Shown one piece after another: positions 1-37,265 of a DNA stretch of 64,000 nucleotides. Origin of the DNA: an uncultured Clostridium sp. (GTDB lineage Bacteria; Bacillota; Clostridia; TANB77; CAG-508); contig USIO01000002.1 in assembly GCA_900554815.1 (NCBI GenBank), forward strand, positions 192-64,191, read 5' to 3'. The notes below the pieces were generated by a model. That model saw only the letters and a list, made by a program, of their open reading frames with translations, made no database searches and was not told where the DNA came from. The position numbers and the translations under genes were made by a program. How positions within the stretch are numbered: position 1 is the first letter of the stretch; each line of letters begins with the position of its first letter.

Positions 1-240
1 GTATGTATAGTCTTTAAAAAAATATAGCAGTATTCTGTCTCTAAAAGTTAAATGTTTTCTTAATTCTTTCAACATTATATTTCTTTTACTCTTCATCTTT
101 ATGGTTCCTCCTATATAATTATTTTGACTATTTATATTTTACCATATTATGTAAATAAAAATAACTATATTAGAAGTTAGATATTAAATCCTCTTTTCGT
201 TGCTACATCCGTTATTTCAAATTTCGACACATTTCGACTT

Positions 241-408
241 TTATTTTAAATCTTTTATTAATTTATCCATATATTCACTTGAAGGATCTTTCTCGAGTTT
301 TATCTCGTTTTTCTTCTTTTCTATATATTCTGTAGCTTTATAATATTCTTCTCTATCTAAAAAATTGCTTATTTCATTTAATATGTTTAATACATCTGCA
401 TTTTTCAT
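241..408 (-). CDS. Small hypothetical protein (55 aa), below the ORF-track cutoff
   Basis: ATG at 408-406, TAA at 243-241. Translation MKNADVLNILNEISNFLDREEYYKATEYIEKKKNEIKLEKDPSSEYMDKLIKDLK. Flanked by 17-bp direct repeats aaataactatattagaa near 160 and 451. Confidence 0.2.
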   Translation of the reverse strand: MKNADVLNILNEISNFLDREEYYKATEYIEKKKNEIKLEKDPSSEYMDKLIKDLK

Positions 409-556
409 AGAACACTACCTCTTTTCTTTCTACAGATATATTATAACACAAATAACTATATTAGAATATAGTTATCTGCAATTTAAGTCAATTTGCAAAT
501 AGTTAAAATAATTGTTACTTTCCTTTAAAATAGGTATATTAGAGGGAGGTGATAAG

Positions 557-775
557 ATGATTCAAGTAAATGTAAAAGAATTACTAAAAAAGCAGAAAAA
601 AACGAAGTATTGGTTTGTCAAACAAATGGAAGGAGGTTATCAGTCACTTACTCGTATGATGGAAAACCAGACAACAGGTATTCGTTTTGATACACTAGAG
701 AAAATGTGTGATATTTTTAATTGTGAAATTGGAGATATTATTGTTAGAAAGAAAGGTAAGAAAAAAAATGAGTAA
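557..775 (+). CDS. XRE/Cro-C1-type HTH transcriptional regulator (YozG-like)
   Basis: RBS GGAGG upstream of ATG at 557. Motifs KTKYWFVKQMEGGYQSLTRM and FDTLEKMCDIFNCEIGDII are typical of small XRE-family regulators. Overlaps the next gene by 8 nt (coupled). Confidence 0.7.
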   Translation: MIQVNVKELLKKQKKTKYWFVKQMEGGYQSLTRMMENQTTGIRFDTLEKMCDIFNCEIGDIIVRKKGKKKNE

Positions 776-1148
776 ACTTTTAAAGCAATATCAAGAACTA
801 AAGAAAAAAGATTCTAATAAAATTTATATTTTTCAAGTAGGAATTTTTTATAATTTATTAAATGAAGATGCCCAATTAGTTTCTAACAAAATTGGATTGA
901 AGCTTACCAATTTAGGTCCAGAAATAGTAAAATGTGGTTTTCCTATCGCCAAATTAGAAAAATATACACATTTATTCGAAAGTCTCGACTTAAAATACGA
1001 ATTAGTTACTAATCAAGCACCTTTAAATCAAGGCTCCTACAGTAGTATTATAAAAAATATACAAAATATAGATTTAGAGAATACTACTTGTAAAGAAGCA
1101 TTTGATATATTATATAATATACAACAAAAATTGAAAAATATACAATAG
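768..1148 (+). CDS. Stand-alone MutS domain I (mismatch-recognition domain)-like protein, 126 aa
   Basis: LLKQYQELKKKDSNKIYIFQVGIFYNLLNEDAQLVSNKIGLKLTNLG...CGFPIAKLEKY aligns with MutS N-terminus MMQQYL..K...P..LLFFRMGDFYELF.DDA..AS.LL.I.LT.RG. The Phe of the GxFxE motif is retained but the Glu is replaced by Asn. Confidence 0.55.
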   Translation: MSKLLKQYQELKKKDSNKIYIFQVGIFYNLLNEDAQLVSNKIGLKLTNLGPEIVKCGFPIAKLEKYTHLFESLDLKYELVTNQAPLNQGSYSSIIKNIQNIDLENTTCKEAFDILYNIQQKLKNIQ

Positions 1149-1167
1149 AGGAGATTTTTTCTCCTCT
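1147..1167. terminator. Bidirectional hairpin terminator between convergent genes
   Basis: agaggaga-ttttt-tctcctct, 8-bp stem, lying between the 768..1148(+) gene and the endolysin 3' end. Confidence 0.4.
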
Positions 1168-1178
1168 TCTTTCATTGT

Positions 1179-2024
1179 TTATTTTAATTTTTGATTTACT
1201 ATTTTTTGAATAGCATTATAATCATATCCCGCTGCAGTTAATCTATTCTTTCTGTCTGTTCCATTGCCCCATTTTCCTTGGATAACTTCATTGACAATAG
1301 TTTCATTTGATTTTTTATTTGATGATGTACTTGAAGATGTTGCACCCAGTTTTTGATTTACTATTTTTTGAATAGCATTATAATCATATCCTGCTGCAGT
1401 TAATCTATTTTTTCTATCATCTCCATTACCCCATTTTCCTTGAATAACTTCTTCGGCAATGGTTTCATTTGATTTTTTATTTGATAATGTACTTGAAGAT
1501 TCTGTTGTACTTCCACTTAATTTAGCATTTACTGTATCAGCTAATTCTTGAAATCTATTTTGCAAATATTTACCCGGACAGCTTGTAGCTGCAAACATAT
1601 TGTGCCTTGTTAAACTTCCATTTTTAGTACCATCATATTTTAATGTAAAACCATATCTTTTACATATATCTACACATAGATTAACTAAAGAATTCCATGC
1701 AGCATCAGATATTGGCCAGTCCCCTCCTGTAGAACTATTAGATACTTCTATTGTAATTGCTTGGCAGTCATTTGAAGATGAACTAGATGTCCATGCTCTA
1801 TTATTTTCATCTACACATCCTACTATTCCACCATCGTTACCAATACAATAATTTGCACTTGCCTGTCTATTTGGATTTTGGAAAAGTTTTGCACATTGTT
1901 CTCCACTTAAAACACCTGCCATGTGATGTGGTGTTATTTTACATACTTTGTAACCTTTTCTTCCTTGTGTATAGTTACTTGAAGATGCTAAAACTTTACT
2001 TTTAATTAAACTTGAAAATCCCAT
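1179..2024 (-). CDS. Endolysin: N-acetylmuramoyl-L-alanine amidase (Amidase_2/PGRP) with two C-terminal CW_7-like cell-wall-binding repeats
   Basis: HHMAG...CIGNDGGIVGCVDENNRAW...TRHNMFAATSCPG amidase core. Tandem repeat GKWGNGxDRKNRLTAAGYDYNAIQKIVNQKL x2, seen as roughly 140-bp DNA direct repeats at 1186-1330 and 1360-1500. Confidence 0.85.
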   Translation of the reverse strand: MGFSSLIKSKVLASSSNYTQGRKGYKVCKITPHHMAGVLSGEQCAKLFQNPNRQASANYCIGNDGGIVGCVDENNRAWTSSSSSNDCQAITIEVSNSSTGGDWPISDAAWNSLVNLCVDICKRYGFTLKYDGTKNGSLTRHNMFAATSCPGKYLQNRFQELADTVNAKLSGSTTESSSTLSNKKSNETIAEEVIQGKWGNGDDRKNRLTAAGYDYNAIQKIVNQKLGATSSSTSSNKKSNETIVNEVIQGKWGNGTDRKNRLTAAGYDYNAIQKIVNQKLK

Positions 2025-2104
2025 TATTCTTCGCCCTCCTCTTTACCATTTGATAATTCTTCTTCCATTTCTGGTGTTAAAGTAATTTTTTCGTTTTCTT
2101 CCAT
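2024..2104 (-). CDS. Small acidic peptide (26 aa), translationally coupled to the endolysin (TAATG overlap)
   Basis: Strong RBS AAGGAGG 7 nt upstream of ATG at 2104-2102. Translation MEENEKITLTPEMEEELSNGKEEGEE. Stop overlaps the endolysin start. Sits between holin and endolysin. Confidence 0.3.
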   Translation of the reverse strand: MEENEKITLTPEMEEELSNGKEEGEE

Positions 2105-2180
2105 AACGAATACCTCCTTTTTTAAAATAAATAAAATCCAGAAATTATTTTTTCTGGATCTTTTGAAATAATTGTTATTT

Positions 2181-2432
2181 CTATTTTGTTTTTGTTGCAT
2201 CATATATTCCTCCTGCAGCTGTTGCAGAAAAAATACATAAAATTAATGAATATAGAATATTTGTGTTTAAACCTGTAGCAAATACTAATATACCTGCGAT
2301 AATACCAATTACTATATTTTGATATGGTATATAATCTTGAGTAGCCCAATTAAACTTCTTGGCCAATGTACCAAATATAGCTGTTACTATTGCCGTTGCT
2401 ACAGCAATTATTATATCTGCTGTTAGTTCCAT
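2181..2432 (-). CDS. Holin (small protein with two hydrophobic transmembrane helices and a charged C-terminus)
   Basis: 83 aa, hydrophobic segments IIIAVATAIVTAIFG and IVIGIIAGILVFATG, C-terminus DATKTK. Position directly upstream of the endolysin. Confidence 0.7.
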   Translation of the reverse strand: MELTADIIIAVATAIVTAIFGTLAKKFNWATQDYIPYQNIVIGIIAGILVFATGLNTNILYSLILCIFSATAAGGIYDATKTK

Positions 2433-2448
2433 AACATTTCCCTCCTTT

Positions 2449-3069
2449 CTACTTTTTACTGACCATTTTTTCTAGGTTTTCTTCAATAAAAAATTTTAAT
2501 TTTAAGATTTCGTTCATTTCATCATTTGAGAAATTTACACAATTTGTTTTTGAAAATTGTAATGCTAAAAATCCTATTGGATCTCCATTTTTATTATTTA
2601 AAATAATATCAAAAAAAGAACCTATTTCTTGTCCTTTTTTTAATCCATAAGTTGCTGGCATACATTCCTTTATATCTTCTAAATTACTAATTTTCATTTG
2701 CTTTTCATTTAATAATGTTCTAATAAAACTAGGAATACAACTTAATGGAACAGCTTGAAGTTCTTTTTGATGGCTTTTTATTCCTGTTCTTACCACTTCA
2801 AAAGTACATGAAGTTTTTAAAGCACTTCTTCCATTTGCATAATGACCACCATTATGAAAATCATAGATTTGTACACGATCAGCCTTAACAAATTCTTTCA
2901 AAGCTTCCATTTTATTTGTAATTTCCATATCTATTGAGCATTGCTTTTGTATTTTTCTAGGTAAGGTATTTTCGATTTCCTTTTTAGCTTTTAAAGCTGT
3001 AGCAATAAGTGTCCCAAGTGCTGCTATTAATGCAGTTATACTTATTATTGTAGTTGTTATACTTTCCAA
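2449..3069 (-). CDS. Membrane-anchored hypothetical protein (206 aa, N-terminal TM helix)
   Basis: N-terminal hydrophobic helix TTTIISITALIAALGTLIATAL, then a soluble domain. No recognisable motif. Sits between XkdX and the holin, after a terminator. Confidence 0.35.
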   Translation of the reverse strand: MESITTTIISITALIAALGTLIATALKAKKEIENTLPRKIQKQCSIDMEITNKMEALKEFVKADRVQIYDFHNGGHYANGRSALKTSCTFEVVRTGIKSHQKELQAVPLSCIPSFIRTLLNEKQMKISNLEDIKECMPATYGLKKGQEIGSFFDIILNNKNGDPIGFLALQFSKTNCVNFSNDEMNEILKLKFFIEENLEKMVSKK

Positions 3070-3119
3070 AAACCTTTTTCCTCCTCTCTTACAATTTTTC
3101 TATAAAAACCGCAAAAAAC

Positions 3120-3160
3120 AACGCTCTAAAATCAATTTTTAGGCGTTTATTTTTTTTATT
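3120..3160. terminator. Hairpin plus T/A run at the end of the late tail operon (bidirectional)
   Basis: aacgc(t)ctaaaa-tcaat-ttttaggcgtt followed by ttattttttttatt. RC side followed by gttttttgcggttttt. Confidence 0.4.
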
Positions 3161-3217
3161 AATATACTTTTATTACTTATTTTTAAGGCTTTTTTAGAAA
3201 ATTTTGTCGCAAAAGAT

Positions 3218-3352
3218 TTATTTGTAGTCTTCTCCTGTAATTTCTTTATATTCCTCTTCTGTAATCCATTTTCCAACGGCATTATATACTCTTGTTTGGT
3301 TCCACATTCCATTTTCATAATAATTTTTTACTTTTTCAAAATTTTTACTCAT
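3218..3352 (-). CDS. xkdX: XkdX-family small phage protein (44 aa)
   Basis: MSKNFEKVKNYYENGMWNQTRVYNAVGKWITEEEYKEITGEDYK. The GKWIT.EEYKEITG C-terminal motif is characteristic of Phage_XkdX. Below the ORF-track cutoff. Confidence 0.65.
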   Translation of the reverse strand: MSKNFEKVKNYYENGMWNQTRVYNAVGKWITEEEYKEITGEDYK

Positions 3353-3355
3353 AAT

Positions 3356-3685
3356 CTACTCCTCCTCCAAGTCAATATCTGACATCATTGCTAGATATTC
3401 AATATCAGATTGCATTTTCAATTTTTCTAGTTCTGCTTCAGATATATCTCTTAAAACGAAATAGTATCCATCTTTATAGTGTGCAATTTGTACTAATTCC
3501 ATATGATTATGTTCTTCAGTAATCTCTTGTCCATCTTCAGTAGTTCCTTCTATTTTGACTTTTATTAATTTTCCTTTGAAGTCCTCCTCTGTGATTTCAG
3601 TTTCTGATACAAAATTATTTCCATTTAAACCTAAGTTTTCAAGTTTTGTTCCATCAGCCAATGTAATTTTCCATGATTTTTCCAT
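3356..3685 (-). CDS. Hypothetical phage protein; XkdW-like call rests only on position and size
   Basis: 109 aa acidic protein immediately upstream of xkdX. Overlaps the RT 3' end by 55 nt. Confidence 0.3.
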   Translation of the reverse strand: MEKSWKITLADGTKLENLGLNGNNFVSETEITEEDFKGKLIKVKIEGTTEDGQEITEEHNHMELVQIAHYKDGYYFVLRDISEAELEKLKMQSDIEYLAMMSDIDLEEE

Positions 3686-4749
3686 GTTACCCTCCTTTTA
3701 AATAAATCATAATATAATTGTGACATATTACTTATTTGTAATCTTGACATATTTTTATAGTTTCCTGCCATCCAACTTTTAAATGTATTTTCTATCTCAT
3801 CATAAGTTAATCTTTTCTTTTCTAATAATCTTTTATATGCTTTCAATTTTCTGCGTTCTCGTGTTATTGCTTTAGGATGTATCTTCTTTATCAACCTACC
3901 TGTTTCAGTTAACTGATATTGTATTTGTAATATTCTAAAAGGTTGAGATAATTTGCACAAGTGTGTTTTTTTAGGATTAATTATTAAGCCTAATTTATCA
4001 GCTATTTCTTTTATTTCTCTCAATAACTTTTTTAAGAAGTCTTTATCTTCATGAATTATATAAAGATCATCCGTATATCTTCCATAATGTTTAACACCTT
4101 TTACGATTTTAATATAATTATCAATTTTTACAGGATAAGAAATTCCTATATTTTGTGAAGGTTGACTTCCTATATCAACACCTCTGTTATTTTTATTATC
4201 TATATTAAATATTTCAAATAAATTACTTAATATCCATAATGTTATTTTTGCTTCGTCTTTATCTGCTTTCTTTAATAAATTATATGTATTTTGTAAACAT
4301 AATTTGTGAGGAATACTAGCATAATAACTGCTAAAATCAATCAATAATATATATCCTTCATTATTTTTATGCTTTCTATAATATCTATGTAAGTGTGTTT
4401 CTAATCTTTTTCTGTGGAAGGATACTCCTTTGCCCTTTTGACTAGCTCCATTATCATAAATTAAATATGGAGAAATAGCTTTACTTAAAACATTATCACA
4501 AAGTAGATGATTTATAGTTTTATCCACCATATTGTCTGTTGTTATATGTCTTATTTTTCCTCTTTCTTTAATTATAAATTTTCTTCCTTTAGAAGGCCTA
4601 TACTTTCCTTCAATTAACTTTTTCTGTAATTCAGCAGTTTCTAATAATTGGTTCATTTCAAATAAGTGTGATTGATATTTGAAAGGAGCTCCTTTAATTG
4701 CTTTTTTTCCTGCCTCATATATTGCATTTGCATCATAAAAAACATTCAT
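3631..4749 (-). CDS. DGR reverse transcriptase
   Basis: RT motifs present: YILLIDFSSYYASIPH (motif A), IGSQPSQNIGISYP (DGR-typical I-G-x-x-x-S-Q motif B), RYTDDLYIIHED (YxDD motif C). 372 aa, typical DGR RT size. Lies adjacent to a TR/VR pair. Confidence 0.9.
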   Translation of the reverse strand: MNVFYDANAIYEAGKKAIKGAPFKYQSHLFEMNQLLETAELQKKLIEGKYRPSKGRKFIIKERGKIRHITTDNMVDKTINHLLCDNVLSKAISPYLIYDNGASQKGKGVSFHRKRLETHLHRYYRKHKNNEGYILLIDFSSYYASIPHKLCLQNTYNLLKKADKDEAKITLWILSNLFEIFNIDNKNNRGVDIGSQPSQNIGISYPVKIDNYIKIVKGVKHYGRYTDDLYIIHEDKDFLKKLLREIKEIADKLGLIINPKKTHLCKLSQPFRILQIQYQLTETGRLIKKIHPKAITRERRKLKAYKRLLEKKRLTYDEIENTFKSWMAGNYKNMSRLQISNMSQLYYDLFKRRVTWKNHGKLHWLMEQNLKT

Positions 4750-4894
4750 AAATCACTTTAATAGTATTACTGGTCGTAACCAAATACATAATGATTAGTA
4801 TTTATCAACATTTACTTGTTGAAGGGATAATCTTTCCTTTCCTTTTCCCATTGCCCTGCTATGAAAGCTTAGTTCATATATATTGCATGGTTGT

Positions 4895-4989
4895 GAAATC
4901 GGGACGAACGCCATTCGAGTTCGAAGCAGAGTTGTTGTTGGCATTGCCATTGCTGTTAACATTAGCGAAGTTCGAAGAAGAAGCGACAT
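4895..4989 (-). repeat. DGR template repeat (TR)
   Basis: About 91 bp homologous to 5662-5756. All 15 mismatches are at TR adenines on the coding (minus) strand. TR frame carries AAC/AAT codons (..NFANVNSNGNANNNSASNSNG..). Confidence 0.85.
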
Positions 4990-5008
4990 ATAAAGATTAC
5001 CCACTAAA

Positions 5009-5521
5009 TTATTTTTTTATGTTTTTTAGAAACCTATTGTCAGACTGTCTGAGTGCTTTTATCATATTAAATTCTTGTTGAATTAATAAAACTAAATTTG
5101 TATACTTATTAAGATCTGCATATAAACATTCTCCTACATACTGTAGTTCATCTTGAAGTGCGTTGCAGCACGACATTGCTCTATCCATTTCTATTCTTCT
5201 TTCTTCAAATTCAGAAATGTATGTTGGAAATATTGTATTTGCAATTCTTAAGTGTCTACTTATTCCTGTCGCTAGTTCTATTACACTATTTGTAGAACGG
5301 TTTAATTGTTGTTCAAAATATTGATAAGTTCTTTTTTTTATTTTTTGCTGTTCTTCTTCTGGAAATCTTTTAATTTTCTCTGCAATAATATTTTCTACCT
5401 TTGAACTATTTATATAGAAATCATTTTCAGCTAGCTTAGTTACCGCCATTCTAATTTTATATGCATTATGTATAGTCTGTAATTTTGATTCTTTCCTTTC
5501 ACTCTTTTTTATATCTGACAT
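5009..5521 (-). CDS. avd: Putative DGR accessory variability determinant (Avd-like), basic helical protein
   Basis: Sits between target gene and TR, which is the canonical avd position. 170 aa, K/R/E-rich and predicted helical. No direct motif proof. Confidence 0.45.
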   Translation of the reverse strand: MSDIKKSERKESKLQTIHNAYKIRMAVTKLAENDFYINSSKVENIIAEKIKRFPEEEQQKIKKRTYQYFEQQLNRSTNSVIELATGISRHLRIANTIFPTYISEFEERRIEMDRAMSCCNALQDELQYVGECLYADLNKYTNLVLLIQQEFNMIKALRQSDNRFLKNIKK

Positions 5522-5619
5522 TTAAAATAATACTATTTCTCCTTTTCTGCAATTTTCGACAAAATTATATCATTTTAAATTTATTAATTTAACTATTTTG
5601 AAGAACCACTATATTATAT

Positions 5620-5640
5620 GTCAGGGCATAAAGCCCTGAC
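5620..5640 (-). other. GC-rich hairpin immediately 3' of VR/IMH (candidate DGR homing-enhancing stem-loop)
   Basis: gtcagggc-ataaa-gccctgac, 8-bp perfect GC-rich stem. Sits 10 nt past the target stop codon and is not followed by a T-run on the transcript strand. Confidence 0.5.
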
Positions 5641-5649
5641 GATGTCTGA

Positions 5650-6510
5650 TTAGTAGATTAGGAAAGCGGGACGAACGCCACCCGAGCCCGAAGCAGAGCC
5701 GCTGTAGGCAAGGCCATAGCCGTTAACAAAAGCGAAGTACGAAGAAGAAGCGACATCCCTTAACCAATAATAATGTCTTGTTCCTGAATCATTAAAAGCT
5801 GTTATTAAATCTTTTCTATGTTGAAATAATGATAACTGAGACTTATCTATTGTAATATTGCCGGTTGGCAAGCTAGTTCCATTTATTACATTATGAAATA
5901 CATTAGTTCCATACACCATTATTTCATTCATTAGTTCTATTGTGCTATCAACCCATGAGCCTGCACTTTCATATCCGCTAGTTGTAGCATTAGCTAAATA
6001 ATTTCTATGTGATAGGATATGAGCAATTTCAAAATCATTTTGTATAATAGTTTTAAATGGAGCCAAATTTTCTGTGTACATTTTGCTTCCTACATAAGCA
6101 CCGGTTGTAACATTGGTTTCATTCATTTGAGCACTACCCATTGTTTTTTCTGGTATCATTAAAACATGATGAGTTGTACACTCTGTATCTCCACAGTGAA
6201 GTCTATAATCTAAGTCTGCTACTATATATTTTCTATTACTATTTTTCCCTATGATATAATCTCCTACAAATATATCATCAAATGTTCCTGCAGCTATTTG
6301 TTCGCTTAATGTTCCATCATAGAATAAGTCTGTTATATCTTGCCCTCTATAAATAGAATTATGAGCACCTGCATTTTGTGGTATTAACCCACTTAATAAT
6401 TTGGATAATAGCACTTTTTTAGTTTTTCCATTTGTAGTATCTACAATTGGAATTACATCATTATTATTTATTGTTAGTAATTCTTCTAATTCTGATATTT
6501 TTTTAATCAT
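5650..6510 (-). CDS. DGR variable target protein: tail-fibre/receptor-binding-like, C-terminal C-type-lectin-like variable domain (DUF1566/FGE-like ending ..HYYWLRD..VRPAF)
   Basis: 286 aa. VR covers the last 32 codons (DVASSSYFAFVNGYGLAYSGSASGSGGVRPAFLIY). First ORF after the tail genes. RBS AAGGAGGG. Confidence 0.8.
   Translation of the reverse strand: MIKKISELEELLTINNNDVIPIVDTTNGKTKKVLLSKLLSGLIPQNAGAHNSIYRGQDITDLFYDGTLSEQIAAGTFDDIFVGDYIIGKNSNRKYIVADLDYRLHCGDTECTTHHVLMIPEKTMGSAQMNETNVTTGAYVGSKMYTENLAPFKTIIQNDFEIAHILSHRNYLANATTSGYESAGSWVDSTIELMNEIMVYGTNVFHNVINGTSLPTGNITIDKSQLSLFQHRKDLITAFNDSGTRHYYWLRDVASSSYFAFVNGYGLAYSGSASGSGGVRPAFLIY
5662..5756 (-). repeat. DGR variable repeat (VR) with IMH-like GC element (ggcgttcgtcccg) at its 3' end
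   Basis: Differs from TR only at positions where TR has A on the coding strand (A to C/G/T). Invariant GC-rich 3' segment shared with TR, then divergent flanks (IMH versus IMH*). Confidence 0.85.
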
Positions 6511-6523
6511 TTTTACCCTCCTT

Positions 6524-7369
6524 TTACATTCCGCAAGCTAGATATTCATTATCTTCTGTTACTAGATAATCTCCATCCTCTGTTACTATTGCAGAAATTG
6601 ATTCCATCAACATTTGTGTTAAATTATCTATTTGTAATTGCAAGTTTCCTGCTGCATCTTCAGATAATTGGTCTTTCATTTGTTGAAACCAAGTATCAAA
6701 TGCATTTTCTTCTTGAGAAAAGAAATTTGCCATTGCTTGCTTAAATTCTGTAAAATATTCATCGTGTTCCGCTTCTTGATCTTCATAATATTTTTGATAT
6801 GCAGCCTGCCATTGGGCATATAATGTTGAAGTATCTACTTGGTATATTAAACTTGTAACCCAAGGACATTCATTACTTCCTCTGCAGTCTGTTATTAGAT
6901 TTTGTGTGACTTTTACACAAGAAGGACTAATAATTATATCAGCTAATCTTAACTCAAAAATATTTTCCTCAGTATTAATTTCTGGATGTACAGGATTACT
7001 TGAAGCAGACCCCTGTCTATATACTATATTTCCTACTCTTCCTGCTTGTGTTTTATCTACTTGAGCCACTATACTGTCTATTCTTGATAAAACTTCCGAG
7101 TTTTGTGATATAGTTATTATCAAGTCGCTTGGATTTTCAAACCATTTGTCTCCAATTATTGCATTACCTGCGGAAACTATTACATTCATTCCATTATTTG
7201 CAGAAAATACTTGTAAATCATCGGATGCTTCGCCCTTTGGTGTTGCAAAAACACCATTGCTTACTAATCTTCTGTAAGGTCTATTCATATCATCTGCAGA
7301 ATAAGTTCTATCCTCATTTATTGCATCAAAAAATCCTGCATTTACATTATATTTTACATCGCTTGACAT
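6524..7369 (-). CDS. Phage tail fibre/baseplate-associated structural protein (hypothetical)
   Basis: 281 aa between the Tal-like gene and the DGR target. Q/E-rich coiled C-terminal part. No motif recognised. Confidence 0.35.
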   Translation of the reverse strand: MSSDVKYNVNAGFFDAINEDRTYSADDMNRPYRRLVSNGVFATPKGEASDDLQVFSANNGMNVIVSAGNAIIGDKWFENPSDLIITISQNSEVLSRIDSIVAQVDKTQAGRVGNIVYRQGSASSNPVHPEINTEENIFELRLADIIISPSCVKVTQNLITDCRGSNECPWVTSLIYQVDTSTLYAQWQAAYQKYYEDQEAEHDEYFTEFKQAMANFFSQEENAFDTWFQQMKDQLSEDAAGNLQLQIDNLTQMLMESISAIVTEDGDYLVTEDNEYLACGM

Positions 7370-7381
7370 ATTTTCCTCCTT

Positions 7382-8533
7382 TTAAACATTTTCAAATGTA
7401 GGCTCCATTGAATATCCTTTTTCATTTCTGCTTTCTATTATTTCTGTTATTCTCGCATTAACTGACATTCCATATTCATTCAATATTCTTACAATATCGC
7501 CTAAGTTATAATCTTTTTTGTATATATAATTAACACCTGTGATAATTTTTCCAGAGAAGGATGTAACCTGTACACATTCTGACATTTTTTCATATCCCAC
7601 ACCTTTTAAATTTTCAGTATATACATTATTACATAGTTTTACCTCTTCTACTTCTCCTTCTTCGTTCTTTGTGATAATTGCTATGTTATTTCCATTTACT
7701 TGATAATAAATTACATTGTTAATTGTTTTTTCTATTCCATTTGGATAACTACTTACAAGTTCATCATAATCTATTGTACTTGAAACATCTCGAGCATCAA
7801 CATACAATTCGTTTCTGTCAATTCCTCTTTCACTTCCAATAGTAGTCGTTTTCCTATCTACTCCTTCGCCTTCTCCTGCTATTAATGCAACATTTTTAAT
7901 ATTGCTATTATCTTCTACATAATCCGTGGTTGATATATTGTCATAGTTTTGTGAAAAAGTAATATACTGACTTCTATCTTCTCCTTTATACAATGAAAAA
8001 ACAAAGTTACCATTTTTTATAGTAACTTTGTATCCCCATCCAAATTGTTGACAAATTTCTTGTACCTTATCTCCTATATAATCATATGTTACTTGTTCTC
8101 GAATAGTTTCAGTAAATCCTTTTTTGTCATCAAGTATAAAATTACTAATTTTACGATTAGGATCCTTTGGATTAATAAATGCATCGGTAATTAGCTTTCT
8201 TATGTAGTCCTCAGCTAACCCATTAAAATTAGTTTGATTCATAACTATTCTTTTATTTAGAATATCTTTTATATCTGTACCTGTAATAATTATTTGGTCT
8301 CCATTTTCTTCATCAGTCTGTATCTCTATCTTCTTAATTTCACAGGACATTTCGTCATCTTCACGAGAAATATACCTACATTCTTTTACTTTGTTTAAAT
8401 TTTCTTTTGATGCTTGAATAACTAATTCACAATCTCCTAATGTATTATATCTTGGTGACCATATAGCACTTGAATATGTGTCAATTATATATATTTTTTT
8501 TAAGTTTTCATCTAATAAATATAGTTCCTCCAT
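7382..8533 (-). CDS. Tail-associated protein (Tal-like / phage minor structural protein, siphovirus tail tip)
   Basis: Follows Dit in gene order. N-terminus MEELYLLDENLKKIYIIDTYSSAIWSPRYN resembles the prophage tail endopeptidase N-domain. Confidence 0.5.
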   Translation of the reverse strand: MEELYLLDENLKKIYIIDTYSSAIWSPRYNTLGDCELVIQASKENLNKVKECRYISREDDEMSCEIKKIEIQTDEENGDQIIITGTDIKDILNKRIVMNQTNFNGLAEDYIRKLITDAFINPKDPNRKISNFILDDKKGFTETIREQVTYDYIGDKVQEICQQFGWGYKVTIKNGNFVFSLYKGEDRSQYITFSQNYDNISTTDYVEDNSNIKNVALIAGEGEGVDRKTTTIGSERGIDRNELYVDARDVSSTIDYDELVSSYPNGIEKTINNVIYYQVNGNNIAIITKNEEGEVEEVKLCNNVYTENLKGVGYEKMSECVQVTSFSGKIITGVNYIYKKDYNLGDIVRILNEYGMSVNARITEIIESRNEKGYSMEPTFENV

Positions 8534-8535
8534 AA

Positions 8536-9396
8536 CTAAACTCCTAAATAAACCTTATAGTAATTAAATTGAATATCTACTGACATATCAGAAGTTCCAT
8601 CATCAGCTAAGAAACTAAAATTATTGTCTCCTATACCTAATTGAAAGAAAGTGGATCCACTTCTTACATAAGGTATTAAATTATATGCTAAAGCATCTCT
8701 AGTTAATATAACTGATTTACTTCCTCTATTGCAATTTATAATCAATTTATCGTTTGCCATAAAATTATAATCTATTATAAAATTCTGGCCATTATCTATG
8801 TTACGAATTTCTAATTTATCTACTCTGCCCATAAATGTTACATTAACAATAAGACCTGTTTCGCTCTCACTTTCATTAATAACATTTGTTATTTTTTCTA
8901 ATTCTATTTCTGAAAAAGCGATTGGTTCTCCTATATTTATTGAAAATGGAAAAGTAAATTTTTTTAGAGCCTTTGAGATACTTTGTACTATTGTTTCTAT
9001 ATCTTTAAAATATGGATCTGGGCATAATATAGAAATTTGTGCAACTTGTTTTTGTGTAAAAATAGGAGCTTCAAAGGCTTGTACATATCCTTCAATATAT
9101 ACATCCCTTTGGTCATCGGTATAATAAATTTTACACCAATTCTTATTTCTAAAATATTGATATAATGTTAATCTATTGGTTTGAACATCTCCATTAATAT
9201 AAACGGTGATAACTATTTCTCTATTAGGTATTTTAGAACTATTAAAAGCTGAGCCATCTCCATTTGCAAAATCTGATGTATTTATCGTTGCATTTGGAGG
9301 ATTCAAACCTTCAACATTAGTTACTTGAAAATTTGTTTCATCATTTGTAAGTTCTAAAATCGCACCTTTAGCATTTTCAACTTTTAAACTAAACAT
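8536..9396 (-). CDS. Distal tail protein (Dit, phage tail family protein)
   Basis: 286 aa gene immediately downstream of the tape measure gene, the canonical Dit position. Confidence 0.5.
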   Translation of the reverse strand: MFSLKVENAKGAILELTNDETNFQVTNVEGLNPPNATINTSDFANGDGSAFNSSKIPNREIVITVYINGDVQTNRLTLYQYFRNKNWCKIYYTDDQRDVYIEGYVQAFEAPIFTQKQVAQISILCPDPYFKDIETIVQSISKALKKFTFPFSINIGEPIAFSEIELEKITNVINESESETGLIVNVTFMGRVDKLEIRNIDNGQNFIIDYNFMANDKLIINCNRGSKSVILTRDALAYNLIPYVRSGSTFFQLGIGDNNFSFLADDGTSDMSVDIQFNYYKVYLGV

Positions 9397-9406
9397 ATTT
9401 TCCCTC

Positions 9407-12400
9407 CTATTTTACTGTTACTAGGTTTAATAAGTTTTTTGTTTGTCTATATAATTCTAATCTTGAAGGTTGTTTTGGAGCATTTATTACTTGAGTAAAA
9501 TTATTTACATTCGATGTTGTATTAGATACATTATTTATATTTGATGCATTGGTTTTTACTATTTGGTCTTTCATTTCATTGGCCACAGCTTTTATCCAAT
9601 GTTTATTTCTTTCAAGTGGTACTACAGCCTCAGCACCAGAACCTTCTAATAATCCAACTTCTCCTTTTCTTAATACTCCACCCTTTGCAAGTCTTGGAAG
9701 ATTAACTCTATTAAAGTTACCTATATTTACTCCGGGTATATTATTAATTAAATTTATTGCACCATTTATCATATCAATACCTTTATTAATTACATTTTCA
9801 ATCATTGATATAATACCATTAATTCCTGACTTTACTGCTCCTCCAATGGCATCTCCTATTGTTGTTCCTAAACTTGAAAATTTATTACTAATTGTATTCC
9901 AAAGTCCTCCAAAGAAGTCTCCTACTTTTCCGAATATACTTGTAATATTATTCCAAGCCTCTTGGAATTTGTCTTTAAACCAGTTTCCTACATTTGAAAA
10001 TGCACCACTGATACTACTCCATGCATTAGATGCCCATTCTTTGGCTGTTGACCATGCTTTTTTAGAATTTTCATTTGCTTGTGTAAATTTTTCTTTAAAC
10101 CAATTCCCTGCATTTGAAAAAGCACTTGTAATATTATTCCAAGTATTAGATGCCCATTCTTTAGTATTTGCCCACGCATTTTGTATATTTTCTTTTGCAT
10201 TAGAGAACTTCTCTCCAAACCAACTACCAACATTTGAAAATACATTTTTTATTCCTTCCCATGCTCCACTAAAGAATTCTCCTAATTGGGCAGGTAATTG
10301 TGCAAGTCCTTGGAATATTGCTGTAATAATTTGTGGTATTGCTTTTATTAATTCAATACAAATTTGAGGTATTGCAGTAACAAGTCCCATAAATAATTGT
10401 ACTGCTCCTGCAATTAATGTTGGTAGATTTTGAAGTAGGGTTGTTACTATTGTGGTAATTATTTTTGGAATTTCTGGAATTAATGCTTGTATAATTTGTG
10501 GAATTGCTTGTACTATTCCCATAAGTAATTGTACAGCACCATTTATAATAGCATCTAATCCATTAATTAGTCCATTTACTATTGCTTGTATTATTGTTGG
10601 TAATGCATCAATAAGAGCAGCTATAATCTCTGGAATTGCATCTATAATACCCATTAATAATTGTATTGCTCCATCAATTATAAGAGGTATTCCAGTAATT
10701 AAGCCATTAACAATACTATTTATAATCTGTGGTAGAGCATTTAAAATAGCCTTAATAACTGTTGGTATTGCATCTATAATTGCCATAAAAAAATCAATCG
10801 CTCCTTGAATTAATTGTGGTATTCCATCAACGAGAGATTGAACTATTTGTGGTATTATATTAACTATTTGTACTAAAATTTCTGGTATCATTTGGCCTAG
10901 ACCTGTTAGCAAACTTTGTATTATTTGAGCTCCTACTGATACTAACTTTGGTAACATACTTAACAATGATTGTGTTATCTGCGGTATTAAATTCATTATG
11001 GTTTGAATTACTTGTGGCAATGCATTTATAATTCCTTGTATCAAAGATGTTATTATTTGTACGCCTATGTTTAAGATTGTTGGTAATGCCTCAGTTAGTT
11101 TTGATAGTAGCATATCTAAAGTTACAGATATTCCACTTGTCAATAATTCTGCTGCTCCAGTAGTTCCTTCCATTAGACCTCTAACGCCATCTCCAATTTG
11201 TTCAAGGCCAGGTAACATTGTATTTACCAAATCAGCAATTCCTTGCTTAAATGCAGTTATTATTGGCATTGCCACTCTACCCATTTCTGACATTGCTGTA
11301 CTCATATTAGCTGTTGCTTCTCTCGATGCTATTAAATCTCCATTAACATCTTTGTAGGCATCTGTAGCACTTTGATATGTTTTGCTCAATGTTTCTGTAA
11401 TTAATGTTGCTCTTTCTTGTTCACTATTACATTGAGCTAATTGCTGATTGAATTTATCTTCAGATATACCTGCCCAATTTAAAGCATCAGCTAGAGGACC
11501 TGTAACTTGTCCCACTTTTGCAGTTTCGTTAGCCGCTTCTGTTAATCCTTCCAGAGGTAAGCTATCGCCAAATGTTGCATACACACCTGTTGCTATGTCA
11601 GTCCACTTTGAAAGTTCTTCTTCGCTCTTTGTTAACTTAGCCAAGTGGTTTACTGCTTCAACAGATTGGTCTGTTTCTCCTAATATTCCAACCATTCCTT
11701 GAAAAGATTTTTGTGCAGCTTCTGTAGAGTGTCCTGCACTTGTAAAAGCAGCTTCGAGTTTTCCCATATCCTCCATAGTATCTTGTGTTGCTGCTCCAGT
11801 AGCCAAAAAACCCGCAACAGCTCCTGCTGCCGCGGTTGCTATACCCATTAAACCTTTTTTAAGTCCTCCACCTAATTTGCTTGCTAAACTATCACTATTT
11901 TTTTCTGCTTTTTGTGCAGCATCTCCTACTTCTTTTAATCCCTTAGCTGCTTTGCTACTTGATTTGTTCGTATCATTTGAATTACTTTCTACTTCGTCAA
12001 GAGCACTACTATATTGTCTTATTTCTTTTTCTGTCTTATTTACTGCAGCTTGTTGATTTAAAATAGTTACTTTTAATTTATCTGCCATATTTGCATTTGC
12101 AGTTTGCTCTTTTTCTACATCTGTTAAGGCTTTTTCATATTTTTTATATTCATCGGATGTCTTTGAAATTCCTTGACTAGATAATTGTTGAAGTTTTGCT
12201 TTTAATTCATCTGCTTTTTTCCCATTTTCTTGCTCTGCTTTTTCAACTGCTTGCAATTGAGATTTATAATTATCAAGTTTCTTATTTTCTTCAATTAATA
12301 CTGAGTTTAATTGTTTTAATTTTGCATTTAATCCATCACTTGATTTTGTCCAGTCATCCATACCTGCACTAGCTGCTTTAAATTCTGCATTTGCGAGTTT

Positions 12401-15077: not shown

Positions 15078-15387
15078 TCACTTCTTCATTAATTGGATCC
15101 AATTCTTCCACAGTTTTTCCACTTAATTGAATAGCTCTTTGAATAAAATATGGAGAGAACGATGTCCCTCCACTTCCATAATTCCATAGGTCTGATACTC
15201 CTCTAGTTATAATTCCTACTGACGAAGGATGTTCGACAACTTCTTTTAGCACTCCTCCATCAATAAGAAATCTTTTTACTTCATCAATATATTCTTGTAT
15301 TGTACCGTCTTGATATGAGCCTGTAATACCAAGGCCTTTTTTTACTTTTTCTAACATATTAATTACTCCTTTAGTTTTGCTTTTCAA
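15055..15387 (-). CDS. Head-tail connector (gp6-like DNA-packaging protein)
   Basis: 110 aa. Immediately downstream of the capsid and acidic-repeat genes. Confidence 0.4.
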   Translation of the reverse strand: MKSKTKGVINMLEKVKKGLGITGSYQDGTIQEYIDEVKRFLIDGGVLKEVVEHPSSVGIITRGVSDLWNYGSGGTSFSPYFIQRAIQLSGKTVEELDPINEEVNEEEKDE

Positions 15388-15781
15388 CTAATTTTCTTTT
15401 GTCTTTCAATAACTCTTCTGCTCTTGTTTTATCAACAGTTATTACATCATTTACTTTATATTTGTCATTAGTATATTTATCAGTAAATGCTATTAAAACT
15501 TTTAATTTCACTTTTGAGCTATTGCTTTTTGATTTTGTAGTATTTTCTTTTTTATTTTTCTCTGTTTCCTCTTCTTCTGTTTTTTCTTCTTCCTCTGCTG
15601 TTGCTTCTTCCTTTACTTCTTCTGTCTTTGTTTCTTCTTTTACTTCCTCTGTTTTTGCCTCTTCTTTTACTTTCTCTGTTTTTGTTTCTTCTACTTTTTC
15701 TTCTGTAGAAACTGCTGTTTCTTCAACAGCAGTTTCCTTAACTTCTTCATTATTTACAATTTCTTCTTTTTTAGTTGCCAT
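15371..15781 (-). CDS. Acidic Glu/Lys-rich repeat protein (possible head decoration or scaffold-like protein)
   Basis: Repeats of TEEVKEE(A/T)KTEEVKEE seen as tandem DNA repeats at 15540-15720. Directly downstream of the major capsid gene. Confidence 0.4.
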   Translation of the reverse strand: MATKKEEIVNNEEVKETAVEETAVSTEEKVEETKTEKVKEEAKTEEVKEETKTEEVKEEATAEEEEKTEEEETEKNKKENTTKSKSNSSKVKLKVLIAFTDKYTNDKYKVNDVITVDKTRAEELLKDKRKLVEKQN

Positions 15782-23658: not shown

Positions 23659-24249
23659 TCATTTCTTTATATCAAACATAAATCCACATTTTGGGCATTG
23701 ACATTGAAATTTATCATCTTTAAATTCTGACAAATCCACTTCTTCATTATCATTTATTATTTCTTCTGATTCTTTTAGTAATTTTTCAATTTCTTCATTA
23801 TCAAATCCTGTTAATAATAAATCTATATCCGCTTCTTTTAATTCTAGAAGTAAATCTTCTAACTTATCATAATCCCATTCTCCACTAATCTTATTTAGTG
23901 CAACATTTAATGCTTTTTCTTTTACTTTGTCTAGTTCAACAACATTACATTCAATTTCAGTATATCCTAATGTTTTTAATACTTTTAACCTTTGATGTCC
24001 ACCTATTACAGTCATATCTTTATTAACTATAATAGGATCCACATATCCAAATTCTTCAATACTTCTTTGAATCTTTTTCCATTCTTCATCTTCGGGTTGA
24101 AGAGATCTTTTCTTGGATTGTATTCTGCTAGTTTTAATTTTTCTATGTTTATTTTTTGAATGTTCATTTTCTTTCTCCTTAAAACAATTTATTTCATATT
24201 TACAATTTTTACATTCTCTTAACATACAGATTTTATAATTCATAGGCAT
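23659..24249 (-). CDS. ParB-like nuclease domain protein with Cys-rich N- and C-terminal zinc-ribbon-like segments
   Basis: GYVDPIIVNKDMTVIGGHQRLKVLKTLGYTEIECNVVEL matches the ParB N-domain (ParBc). Start set at MPMNYK (24249) because the longer ORF would overlap the tRNA-like element. Confidence 0.6.
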   Translation of the reverse strand: MPMNYKICMLRECKNCKYEINCFKEKENEHSKNKHRKIKTSRIQSKKRSLQPEDEEWKKIQRSIEEFGYVDPIIVNKDMTVIGGHQRLKVLKTLGYTEIECNVVELDKVKEKALNVALNKISGEWDYDKLEDLLLELKEADIDLLLTGFDNEEIEKLLKESEEIINDNEEVDLSEFKDDKFQCQCPKCGFMFDIKK

Positions 24250-24261
24250 ATATCCTTTTTT

Positions 24262-24335
24262 CTTTGGTTGCGGACATAGGATTCGAACCTCGTCTATGGG
24301 ATATGACCCCATCGTGCTGCCTTTGCACCATCTCC
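24262..24335 (-). ncRNA. Degenerate tRNA-fMet-like element (CAU anticodon loop), possible phage-borne tRNA or pseudo-tRNA
   Basis: GGTTCGAATCC T-loop and acceptor ..CCGCAACCA. D-stem GTGC/GCAC and anticodon stem ATGGG/CCCAT with loop GTCATAT. T-stem only 3 bp and one acceptor mismatch. Confidence 0.4.
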
Positions 24336-24487
24336 GCAATATAAAAAGCTACCTAAAGGGGAAGGTAGCTCTACAAAATTGGAAAAAGATATATGAAATT
24401 TCATATTTGCAATTTTTTGCAATTATAATTGTAACATATTATTTTTTTTAATAATACGGACAAAATATATAAATTTTATGTACAAAA

Positions 24488-35407: not shown

Positions 35408-36796
35408 ATGAATACTACAGGTACTCGTAGAGCTAATGGCGAAGGATCTATCTACGATACTATACAAAAGATACCTAGAAGAAAAAAATTGGATCGTGAA
35501 TGCGATATTTGTAAAAACTGTACTGATAGAAATATATGTAATAATCGTACTGGCTCAGCCAAATGTCAGAAGTGCGTTGAGTGTACTGACTGCTTAAAAT
35601 ATTGTGACCGCTTCTATTGTTATTTTAGATATCAAGCTCAGATTTCCATAGATAAAAAACAGACTACTGTTGCTAATGAAGAAAAGAAAAAAGCTGCAGT
35701 TGATAAAAAATTAAATGTAGAAGCAAAAGTCCATACTAAGAGCTATGTAAAAAAACATGGTATCACTATTATTGAAGTATGTAAAAAAATAGGAAATACA
35801 AAATTTGAAGCAGGAAAAATCGTAAAAAATACAAAGGATAAAGATAAATATCATTACAAATATATTGAGAACTGGCCAGATTTTCAAAAGCCAGTACAAA
35901 AAGTAACTTATAATGAAGTCCAAGATTTTCTTAATTCCATAAGGCATCTCTCACAAGGAGAAATAGAAAAAATAGTTGCTAAACTAAAAGCAGGCTTTAT
36001 GCAATGTGTATTAGATAAAATAATAGCCTATCCAGATAATCCTATGTTAAGGATATATATTCCTGTTTCCTTACAGAAAAAAGAACCTGTGCAGGCTTTT
36101 GAAATTGAGGAGCAAAGAAAATTAATAAAATATTTACTAACTAAGCCTTTGGTAAAAAGTTCTAGATGTAATTATGATGAAGAAACTCTAAGGAATTTAT
36201 TTATATGTGCATTATTATCTGCTGCAAGAATTGGAGAATTAGGATCCATTGATATTGATAAAAATATAGATTTAAAGGCTAGCGGATTCACAATAAATCG
36301 AACATTATCTAGTGATGGTGGAAAAATCATTATGGGCAAAACTACTAAAACTGGTCGTAAAAAAGTAGAGCAAGGCTTGTTAGATGAAAGGTTTGTACCA
36401 TTTGATATTTTTGATGAAAACTTCATGCTAGACATTGTCAAAAATCAAATAAAAAATGCACGAAGTAATCCAAATAATAAGGAAAATCTTTTGTTTTGTC
36501 AGTTAGATGGTAGTTATATAGACCATCGTTCCATAAATAATATATTTAAAAGGATTTGTAGAGAAGCAGGTGTAAAATTAGAACTTCCTAAGGGATGTCA
36601 TACTCACATGTGTAGGCATACTGCTGTTACTAGGATGATTGAAGCCGGAATGGATCTTCTGGTTATTGCAGCTATCCTTGGCCATGTTGATGACCGCCAA
36701 ATAAGAGAGACTTATGGTCATATTCTCGCACGATATATAAACAAGCAGTTAAAGGATTGTAGAGTTTATTCTAAAAAGATAAAACTTTGTGCTTAG
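35408..36796 (+). CDS. int: Tyrosine integrase (phage integrase family) with an unusual Cys-rich N-terminal extension
   Basis: Catalytic region CRHTAVTRMIEAG...LGHVDDRQIRETYGHI (HxxR...Y). N-terminus has 10 or more Cys (CDICKNC..C..C..CQKCVEC..C..C). Confidence 0.85.
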   Translation: MNTTGTRRANGEGSIYDTIQKIPRRKKLDRECDICKNCTDRNICNNRTGSAKCQKCVECTDCLKYCDRFYCYFRYQAQISIDKKQTTVANEEKKKAAVDKKLNVEAKVHTKSYVKKHGITIIEVCKKIGNTKFEAGKIVKNTKDKDKYHYKYIENWPDFQKPVQKVTYNEVQDFLNSIRHLSQGEIEKIVAKLKAGFMQCVLDKIIAYPDNPMLRIYIPVSLQKKEPVQAFEIEEQRKLIKYLLTKPLVKSSRCNYDEETLRNLFICALLSAARIGELGSIDIDKNIDLKASGFTINRTLSSDGGKIIMGKTTKTGRKKVEQGLLDERFVPFDIFDENFMLDIVKNQIKNARSNPNNKENLLFCQLDGSYIDHRSINNIFKRICREAGVKLELPKGCHTHMCRHTAVTRMIEAGMDLLVIAAILGHVDDRQIRETYGHILARYINKQLKDCRVYSKKIKLCA

Positions 36797-36799
36797 ATA

Positions 36800-37191
36800 T
36801 ACAAATATTTACATTAAAATTACATTAAAAACCTATTCGTAAAAAATTCATACCCAATGTATTGTAGCTATTTCAGTACATTGGGTAAATTACTCTAGGA
36901 GTTATTTCCGACTACCCGCTTTTTCTATTTCCAGAAAAAATGAAAGCTAGTAATATCAAATACTAGCTTTTTTCATATTAAAAAATTTTAATGTAAATAT
37001 GTTTTTTAATGTAAATATTTTTAGAGTTTTAATGTAATTTTAATGTAGTTTTTCCATAATTTTAAGAATTTTTAAGAAGTTTTAAAAAGTTCAAAAATAT
37101 TTTTGCTATCAAAAAACCTTGATTTTTCAATACTTATGTGTTTTTAAGAACTTTTAAGAAGTTTTAAAAACTTTTAAAAATATAAATTCTT
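36800..37191. promoter_or_regulatory. attL region with integrase arm-type-like repeats
   Basis: 30-bp direct repeat ttttaagaaNttttaagaagttttaaaaa at 37060 and 37142. taatgtaaatat x2 at 36980-37010 and acattaaaa x2 (inverted) at 36808-36828. 11-bp inverted repeat tacccaatgta/tacattgggta at 36851-36887. Confidence 0.4.
36944..36975 (+). terminator. Intrinsic terminator of int
   Basis: aagctagta-atatcaaa-tactagctt followed by tttttt. Confidence 0.6.

Positions 37192-37265
<74 letters not shown>

Follow-up and report, generated by a model that had tools for sequence, protein, structure and literature searches.

An XRE-linked MutS-like gene in a Clostridia prophage that carries a diversity-generating retroelement

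Why would a phage that carries a diversity-generating retroelement (DGR) also encode a small piece of MutS, a protein of mismatch repair, paired with an XRE-type regulator? The question is raised by positions 557–1,148 of a 64,000-nucleotide (nt) stretch of contig USIO01000002.1 (GenBank assembly GCA_900554815.1), from an uncultured Clostridium sp. of the CAG-508 lineage. This whole stretch is hereafter called the window, and the 126-residue MutS-like product is called mini-MutS. We assign a probability of roughly 50% to the reading that the two genes form a self-contained, XRE-controlled operon for a DGR accessory protein of the Msl ('MutS-like') kind, serving as a shield or decoy against host MutS. 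The two genes are as follows.

557–775, plus strand: XRE/Cro-C1-type helix-turn-helix (HTH) gene, 72 residues, first gene of the operon (ATG at 557, TAA at 773–775)
768–1148, plus strand: mini-MutS (Msl-type) gene, 126 residues (ATG at 768, TAG at 1146–1148)

An initial annotation of the window had described an XRE HTH regulator gene overlapping a MutS-like gene by 8 nt. The two open reading frames (ORFs) are arranged exactly so, and the 72-residue product matched Pfam HTH_26 (PF13443; E 2.1e-11, 44.3 bits, above the cut-off of 22). The pairing recurred in relatives: an XRE gene lay 5' of the mini-MutS gene in 62 of the 64 IMG/VR loci with a reverse transcriptase (RT), the XRE stop and the msl start overlapped in 69 of 91 distinct operons (most commonly by 26, 8 or 4 nt), and the HTH and mini-MutS parts were fused as a single ORF in one cluster representative (P0122, 202 residues).

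The likeness of the 126-residue protein to MutS domain I, which the initial annotation had proposed, was confirmed by a match to Pfam MutS_I (E 3.9e-12, 46.8 bits, cut-off 20.6). The match covered profile positions 3–73 of 113, i.e., the first two thirds of the domain, and the NCBIfam models of full-length MutS aligned at model positions 2–72. An AlphaFold2 model built on 15 family members, with a predicted local distance difference test (pLDDT) score of 84.9, consisted of an alpha/beta domain (residues 1–81), a disordered linker (83–88) and two helices (88–99 and 108–124), and Foldseek superposed the ~82 N-terminal residues on domain I of Taq, E. coli, Neisseria and human MutS with a root-mean-square deviation of 1.4–2.5 Å. 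HMMER paired GIFYN of mini-MutS with GDFYE in the MutS of Taq and E. coli, an alignment in which the Phe is retained and an Asn stands in place of the Glu, just as had been annotated. The same annotation had called this Glu catalytically important, which has to be corrected, as in MutS domain I it is a mismatch-contact residue and not a catalytic one. Phe27 was invariant in 18 of 18 unbiased family members, and the residues invariant across 18 diverse members were M1, S2, Y8, K12, G25, F27, D34, K55, G57 and F58. At the position of the MutS Glu, 171 distinct family sequences carried N (79), I (77), L (10), V (3), Y or C, and none of the 171 carried E, D or Q. A complete domain I with the Phe-X-Glu motif is thus not present, and with a length of 126 residues and matches of MutS models to its ends alone, mini-MutS is devoid of the connector, lever, clamp and ABC ATPase. 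The earlier description of the protein as domain I only was therefore correct as to these missing parts, but it overlooked that just two thirds of domain I are present and that a C-terminal hairpin is attached.

What is this second part? Residues ~88–124 form a conserved helix-loop-helix resembling the extreme C-terminus of MutS, and the C-terminal ~35 residues carry the motif I-x-x-I/L-D/N-x-x-x-x-T/S-P/C-x-E/K-A-x-x-x-L, which is reminiscent of the MutS end. When C-terminal fragments were searched in isolation, three of ten matched positions 823–853 of phrog_8439 (E 0.0026–0.09), an 853-position MutS-type profile whose start matches the N-terminal domain of mini-MutS, and two matched the curated MutS model TIGR01070 at positions 812–839 of 840 (E 0.03 and 0.12). 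HMMER set the C-terminal segment on residues 827–849 of E. coli MutS, with a non-significant score. We consider it rather probable, though not proven, that mini-MutS joins the core of domain I to the C-terminal hairpin of MutS, with approximately positions 75–810 deleted.

Such a hairpin might also act directly on the host protein. It would then pair with the C-terminal tetramerisation hairpin of host MutS, mismatch binding by Msl being secondary, and would either block MutS tetramers, with dominant-negative consequences for repair and anti-recombination, or allow docking on MutS at the DGR target. The alignment of C-terminal fragments to the last ~30 positions of MutS-type profiles from two libraries is consistent with this mechanism, as are the placement on E. 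coli MutS and the family-wide conservation of the hairpin; many members also keep the 'T-P' of the MutS motif, aligned with P839 of E. coli, and PDB entry 6i5f describes a P839E change that makes MutS a dimer. However, the similarity is weak and non-significant against E. coli MutS, the window clade has Cys in place of Pro, and a hairpin that alone mattered would not account for the invariant Phe or for the core of domain I. We regard this explanation as unlikely.

A protein that contains only pieces of MutS could, in principle, be a decayed, functionless fragment of a host or phage mutS gene. A profile search of 1.84 billion cluster representatives returned 255 clusters (50% identity) at E ≤ 1e-10, and nearly all of the 150 clusters listed were 110–145 residues long and aligned from residue 1 to ~125. 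This uniform length, together with the end-to-end matches, indicates a genuine stand-alone family rather than gene fragments. The ratio of nonsynonymous to synonymous substitution rates (dN/dS) of msl was 0.07–0.13 against close relatives, the start, motifs and length are conserved, and the gene lies inside a phage genome; judged by these comparisons, it is under purifying selection. The conservation data refute a dead mutS fragment, the probability of which we take to be close to nil. No match at E ≤ 1e-3 was obtained by tblastn against 50,697 GenBank phage records, and all known members of the family come from metagenomic phages and metagenome-assembled genomes. Relatives were encoded on 73 IMG/VR viral contigs, and a family-specific degenerate DNA pattern located the gene in at least 119 GTDB species, the carriers being uncultured Clostridia (including Clostridium sp. 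CAG:508), Bacilli, 'Tenericutes' and Erysipelotrichaceae. When a neighbour-joining tree was built, one bipartition held 77 of the 80 XRE-linked genes, and the members of the window clade, 48–98% identical to the window protein, formed essentially one clade. They have in common the derived gene order, in which an XRE gene precedes msl and both stand apart from the DGR, past the lysis genes on the other strand. The window protein is a full-length homologue, at 30–48% identity, of the proteins from loci with the order msl-avd-RT.

Two giant proteins found alongside the family, P0178 (2323 residues) and P0256 (1756 residues), contained 5–6 tandem units resembling MutS domain I together with leucine-rich-type repeats. 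They keep GDFYH/FY motifs in some units and resemble 'polyvalent' mobile-element proteins, which suggests that domain I has been reused more widely as a module outside mismatch repair.

Is there an intact DGR beside the module? The initial annotation had placed the two genes in a DGR-carrying phage, and the following features were located on the minus strand.

3631–4749, minus strand: DGR RT, 372 residues, intact (RVT_1 on identical or near-identical genes; RT profile)
4895–4989, minus strand: DGR template repeat (TR)
5009–5521, minus strand: 'p170', a conserved all-helical protein of 170 residues between the variable repeat (VR) and the TR, the usual position of Avd
5622–5638, minus strand: GC-rich hairpin, 23 nt downstream of the VR, of a type known from DGR target sites
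5650–6510, minus strand: DGR target gene, 286 residues, with the VR at 5662–5756 at its 3' end and a C-terminal DUF6273 match

All 16 of the 16 differences between TR and VR lie at TR adenines (A to N), and the VR ends 10 nt ahead of the stop codon of the target gene. With an RT, an A-specific TR/VR pair and a VR at the 3' end of its target, the window contains a DGR. By analogy with the Bordetella phage DGR, the hairpin at 5622–5638 probably has a role in the DGR target. The mini-MutS gene is on the opposite strand and is separated from the RT by 2.5 kb with seven ORFs, including those of the endolysin and a holin-like protein. The first 12 kb of the window contained no bAvd-like ORF, and neither did loci arranged like it. 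The p170 protein was present in 56 mini-MutS loci and, in a separate scan, in 24 of 24 RT-related loci, 17 of them without mini-MutS. A comparison of p170 with bAvd by hhalign gave a probability of 0.35%, i.e., no detectable similarity, and a single-sequence AlphaFold2 model was helical and uninformative (predicted template-modelling score 0.33). The p170 protein may be an undescribed substitute for Avd.

The link between mini-MutS and DGRs, which had been suggested from this one phage, was found in every assessable locus of a co-occurrence survey (64 in IMG/VR and 80 in GTDB), using an RT profile built from mini-MutS loci. In IMG/VR, an RT was located 1.8–4.2 kb away on the opposite strand in 64 of 64 loci with enough downstream DNA, and the five loci without an RT all had less than 1.5 kb of flank. 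In GTDB, an RT was present within 4.2 kb in 80 of 111 evaluable loci; 27 of the remainder had short flanks and 4 had a single long flank, and wherever both flanks reached 4 kb or more, an RT was present. At least five gene arrangements were seen. More than half of the 80 GTDB loci (44) showed the order msl-avd-RT on one strand, in which the spacer ORF of ~118 residues was identified as bAvd (PF22296, E 2.8e-22). The window-type arrangement occurred in 13, a convergent RT less than 1.5 kb away in 11, an RT downstream on the same strand without an intervening avd in 9, and an RT upstream on the same strand in 3. One of these three (L226), with the order target-p170-TR-RT-msl, corresponds to the DGR type of the window plus msl. 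A-specific TR/VR pairs were detected in 41 of the 80 loci. Because several independent arrangements were observed, the DGR linkage belongs to the whole family and not just to one phage lineage.

This gene order would also be expected if Msl were a nucleic-acid-binding subunit working with RT and Avd or p170 in retrohoming, independently of mismatch repair, e.g., by stabilising the mismatched duplex of complementary DNA (cDNA) and target or by aiding target recognition or priming. Besides the msl-avd-RT operon of the 44 loci and the position directly after the RT in others, a C-terminal extension resembling MutS_I has been noted on three DGR RTs (PMC5758913), a hint that Msl may work physically close to the RT. 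The family-wide loss of the Glu likewise suggests a binding mode different from that of MutS. On the other hand, in the Bordetella system RT and Avd are enough for cDNA to be made with adenine mutagenesis, Msl is not needed by close relatives of this DGR, and the window-clade gene is transcribed separately from the opposite strand, which would be odd for a stoichiometric subunit; we hold such a role to be unlikely.

The RT genes themselves showed two further peculiarities. In 26 of 72 IMG/VR loci, the DGR RT frame was broken at one spot in the conserved motif G-L-P-I-G-N-F-T-S-Q-W by an extra C (e.g., L052:8509-8546 and L040:3351-3388, and also in L053, L059, L065, L076, L026 and L046). Translated in the zero frame, the break sequence CCT ATT C GGT AAT yields P-I-Arg(CGG)-stop; a shift to the +1 frame recovers the RT. 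A-specific TR/VR pairs were present in 21 of the frame-broken loci, with mismatch counts differing among near-identical phages, and for this reason their DGRs look active. The break is a candidate for a programmed +1 frameshift at a rare CGG codon, and frameshifted yet active DGR RTs have been reported in Quimbyviridae (PMC8008677). In the higher-GC phages with a p170-TR-RT cassette (L277, L281, L285, L287, L292 and similar), the RT has a Ser/Thr/Pro-rich C-terminal tail of ~30–60 residues.

If mini-MutS serves a DGR, how could a gene outside the DGR cassette be controlled? The sequence around the module contained the following features.

1–99, minus strand: 5' part of a small ORF (start codon at 97–99, good ribosome-binding site), continuing past the left end of the window
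158–174: operator-like box 1, AAAATAACTATATTAGA, 5' of the leftmost small ORF
241–408, minus strand: 55-residue ORF, divergent from the XRE gene, which accompanies the module in relatives
449–478: palindromic operator-like site, CAAATAACTATATT/AATATAGTTATCTG, with 14-nt arms that are 93% complementary, in the divergent intergenic region and including box copy 2
512–540, plus strand: promoter-like site before the XRE gene, TTGTTA-17-TATATT, a consensus match only, with its -10 element overlapping box 3 (527–543)
1147–1167: hairpin resembling a bidirectional intrinsic terminator, located where the mini-MutS and endolysin genes converge

The 17-nt box is present in three copies (158–174, 449–465 and 527–543), and box 1 recurs at an equal relative position in L002 and L012–L014. 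Relatives have a palindrome at the position matching 449–478, and in L015 and L029 both half-sites are altered (ATACCTA...TAGGTAT); such paired changes are the behaviour expected of an operator. As far as sequence features can tell, the module is a separate transcription unit with operator-like palindromes, and the XRE protein probably binds the candidate palindromic sites at 449–478, 527–543 and 158–174. A toxin-antitoxin interpretation of an XRE gene followed by a gene for a small protein was raised by a weak match to the PezA N-terminus (E 3.5e-5, far below the cut-off) and was dropped given that the partner has a conserved DNA-binding fold with a link to DGRs.

The position beside a lysis cassette, also noted in the initial annotation, was evident from two neighbouring genes, and an integrase gene was found at the opposite end of the prophage.

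1179–2024, minus strand: endolysin with Amidase_2 and two CW_7 repeats, convergent with mini-MutS
2181–2432, minus strand: holin-like membrane protein of 83 residues (sub-cut-off Pfam holin matches, and position)
35408–36796, plus strand: tyrosine integrase, near a tRNA-Gly gene (37192–37265, minus strand)

Proteins 71–98% identical to mini-MutS occupied the same spot beside the prophage endolysin in three lineages with different host-side flanks (TruA; MiaB-like/AlaRS; NlpC-P60/ComEC). Permuted contigs in which the gene is internal (e.g., L024) showed the order early genes, S24 repressor, integrase, small ORF, XRE, mini-MutS and lysin, so the module is internal to the phage genome, with attP on one side and the lysis cassette on the other. 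The viral contigs and the three host flanks thus rule out a host-derived origin of the module. Window positions 1–128 aligned at 92–95% identity to IMG/VR contigs L012–L014 and are still phage-like, so the left prophage end lies outside the window. An S24/HTH repressor was also located at the integrase end, and no att repeat matching the 3' end of the tRNA-Gly was found in the window.

Comparison of window positions 129–1500 with L002–L005 revealed a mosaic junction. The module was 83–86% identical to L002, whereas the adjoining 9.7 kb (1185–10931) was 99% identical, and the 3' part of the endolysin gene, encoding the C-terminal CW_7 repeats, shared the lower identity of the module. The region is mosaic and, on this pattern, the module is a recombination unit. 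The endolysin gene contained a 162-nt tandem duplication (1188–1338 and 1350–1500, 91% identical), relatives had a 335-residue version with an additional repeat, and these repeats may be the point of recombination.

A mosaic region of this sort raises the question of whether the module, in the window clade, has become a lysogeny-expressed 'moron' unrelated to the DGR, acting for example to raise recombination between diverged phage or host DNA, in superinfection control or as a regulatory switch, with proximity to the DGR merely reflecting lineage inheritance. Its location at the prophage end beside attP, opposite to the late genes and with its own putative promoter, operators and terminator, would suit such a role, as would the difference in identity from the adjoining DNA and the restriction of XRE-linked genes to essentially one clade. 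However, the RT was missing in none of the 64 clade loci with enough flank, the wider family is DGR-adjacent in several unrelated arrangements, and an L006-type phage keeps both module and RT despite different lysin and tail genes. We consider a co-opted moron very unlikely.

To what extent is this a known system? An MSL class of DGR accessory genes was named by Wu et al. 2018 (PMC5758913), where it was found in 16 of 372 DGRs, including that of Legionella, with proteins of 112–283 residues that always occurred with avd and with the family designated Architecture D. Msl was also mentioned for three Bacteroides DGRs (bioRxiv 10.1101/2024.11.15.621889). The initial annotation had missed this class, as well as the C-terminal hairpin and the family-wide extent of the Glu loss. 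Likened to the class by its published description rather than by alignment to published MSL sequences, the window protein is small (126 residues) with detectable MutS homology, and its distant family members are located in msl-avd-RT operons, which fits the described combination of MSL and avd. In contrast to that description, the window gene is detached from the DGR cassette, being encoded on the other strand past the lysis genes; an XRE gene overlaps it, and putative operators and a terminator of its own accompany it; and the window DGR is without a detectable bAvd, whereas the published MSL DGRs all have avd. The gene kind is thus already described, while its separation from the DGR under XRE control, seen across a large clade of phages of gut Clostridia, the pairing of msl with a bAvd-less DGR, and the 'two ends of MutS' anatomy with family-wide Glu loss look new.

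Compared with bacterial MutS (MutS1), mini-MutS shares the core fold of domain I, the Phe of the Phe-X-Glu wedge and a predicted C-terminal helix-loop-helix aligning weakly to the last ~30 positions, but it lacks approximately positions 75–810, i.e., the end of domain I, the connector, lever, clamp, ABC ATPase and clamp-binding linker, and the Glu is never conserved in its family. Without these parts, neither signalling to MutL nor sliding-clamp action is open to it. The bAvd protein (PF22296) is likewise encoded by a small accessory gene of DGR cassettes and is co-encoded with distant mini-MutS members, but it is an unrelated four-helix bundle and is absent from the window DGR, where its position is held by the 170-residue protein. 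Three short proteins annotated in metagenomes of gut phages (BFVD A0A8S5PPT8, A0A8S5PL02 and A0A8S5L9N2) show the same stand-alone domain I fold in tailed phages, at only 13–25% sequence identity.

These lines of evidence can be combined in a model of how Msl could shield DGR products from host MutS. During mutagenic retrohoming, adenine-mutagenised cDNA would pair with the parental VR, giving a heteroduplex dense in mismatches. Mini-MutS would occupy these mismatches, probably in the form of a dimer joined through the hairpin or else tethered to partners, and would keep host MutS from starting repair or rejection, because it can neither hydrolyse ATP nor recruit MutL; with host MutS kept off, more diversified VRs would survive. 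In the window clade, the gene would have moved out of the DGR operon and would therefore have its own promoter and an autoregulating XRE repressor acting on the palindromic boxes, so that the lysogen would make this potentially mutagenic protein only at a low level or under certain conditions. In Bacteroides, deletion of host mutS raised VR mutagenesis 5–10 fold in an all-or-nothing manner (bioRxiv 10.1101/2024.11.15.621889), and masking of mismatches or competition with MutS, as the initial annotation had envisaged, would fit these data. The proposed outcome is the same as that of dominant-negative MutL(E32K) in engineered DGRs and oligonucleotide recombineering, namely local or global silencing of mismatch repair and survival of mismatch-rich heteroduplexes, although MutL(E32K) bears no relation to Msl and was engineered as a tool rather than being part of natural DGRs, and the mechanism of Msl is an inferred one.

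Several points weigh against this model. An isolated domain I without the clamp domains that hold DNA may bind mismatches weakly, and the mismatch-contacting Glu has been lost together with about a third of the domain. Searches of hairpin profiles against PDB sequences gave no significant MutS match, including to E. coli MutS, and the similarity of the hairpin to MutS is weak, being found in the PHROG and NCBIfam profile matches only. No full-length MutS was found in the window or in any fetched locus. Seventeen higher-GC phage loci possess a p170-TR-RT cassette with an RT 53–57% identical to that of the window and contain no mini-MutS within the fetched flank (up to 8 kb on each side), from which it follows that Msl is dispensable or optional for this DGR type. 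Within the window clade, the DGR linkage could result in part from common descent of one phage lineage. Furthermore, MutS was reportedly not required for the Bordetella phage DGR (PMC5758913), and no functional test of Msl was found in the literature searched.

A bolder form of the shield or decoy proposal would make Msl a natural phage antagonist of host mismatch repair, assembled from the two ends of MutS, whose wedge sits on mismatches, whose hairpin dimerises or plugs into host MutS, and whose expression is gated by XRE against a general mutator lysogen. We regard this as doubtful. We know of no described example of a natural viral protein directed against mismatch repair.

Other parts of the window were less informative as to the module. 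Pfam and PHROG searches gave no match for the 55-residue ORF at 241–408 and nothing informative for neighbouring ORFs of 109, 206 and 59 residues. Between the integrase and the tRNA-Gly (36980–37190), short direct repeats of the form TTTTAAGAA(N)TTTTAAGAAGTTTTAAAAA occur five times, together with TTAATGTAAAT-like units, and may be arm-type sites of the integrase. A tRNA-Met (CAT) gene within the prophage (24265–24338, minus strand) overlaps the start of a 226-residue ORF (23659–24339). An array of 27-nt tandem repeats (15548–15715, minus strand) lies within the minus-strand ORF at 15371–15781, and 120-nt repeats are present at 9965–10244 in a tape-measure-like gene of 1026 residues.

In prokaryotes, no natural system that hypermutates proteins in a targeted way is known to us other than DGRs. 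Engineering of DGRs is under way; their output is reduced by host mismatch repair, and dominant-negative MutL is added to engineered systems to bypass it. The present analysis delimits a large family with strict DGR linkage, its anatomy, its optional status in one DGR type and an XRE-controlled clade, which makes the question of its role testable, and the higher-GC p170 phages that lack Msl provide a natural comparison set for when Msl is needed. If Msl does antagonise host mismatch repair, this would explain how DGRs get dense mismatch tracts past MutS, and if the decoy idea is right, Msl would represent a compact natural tool to boost DGR- or oligonucleotide-based mutagenesis.

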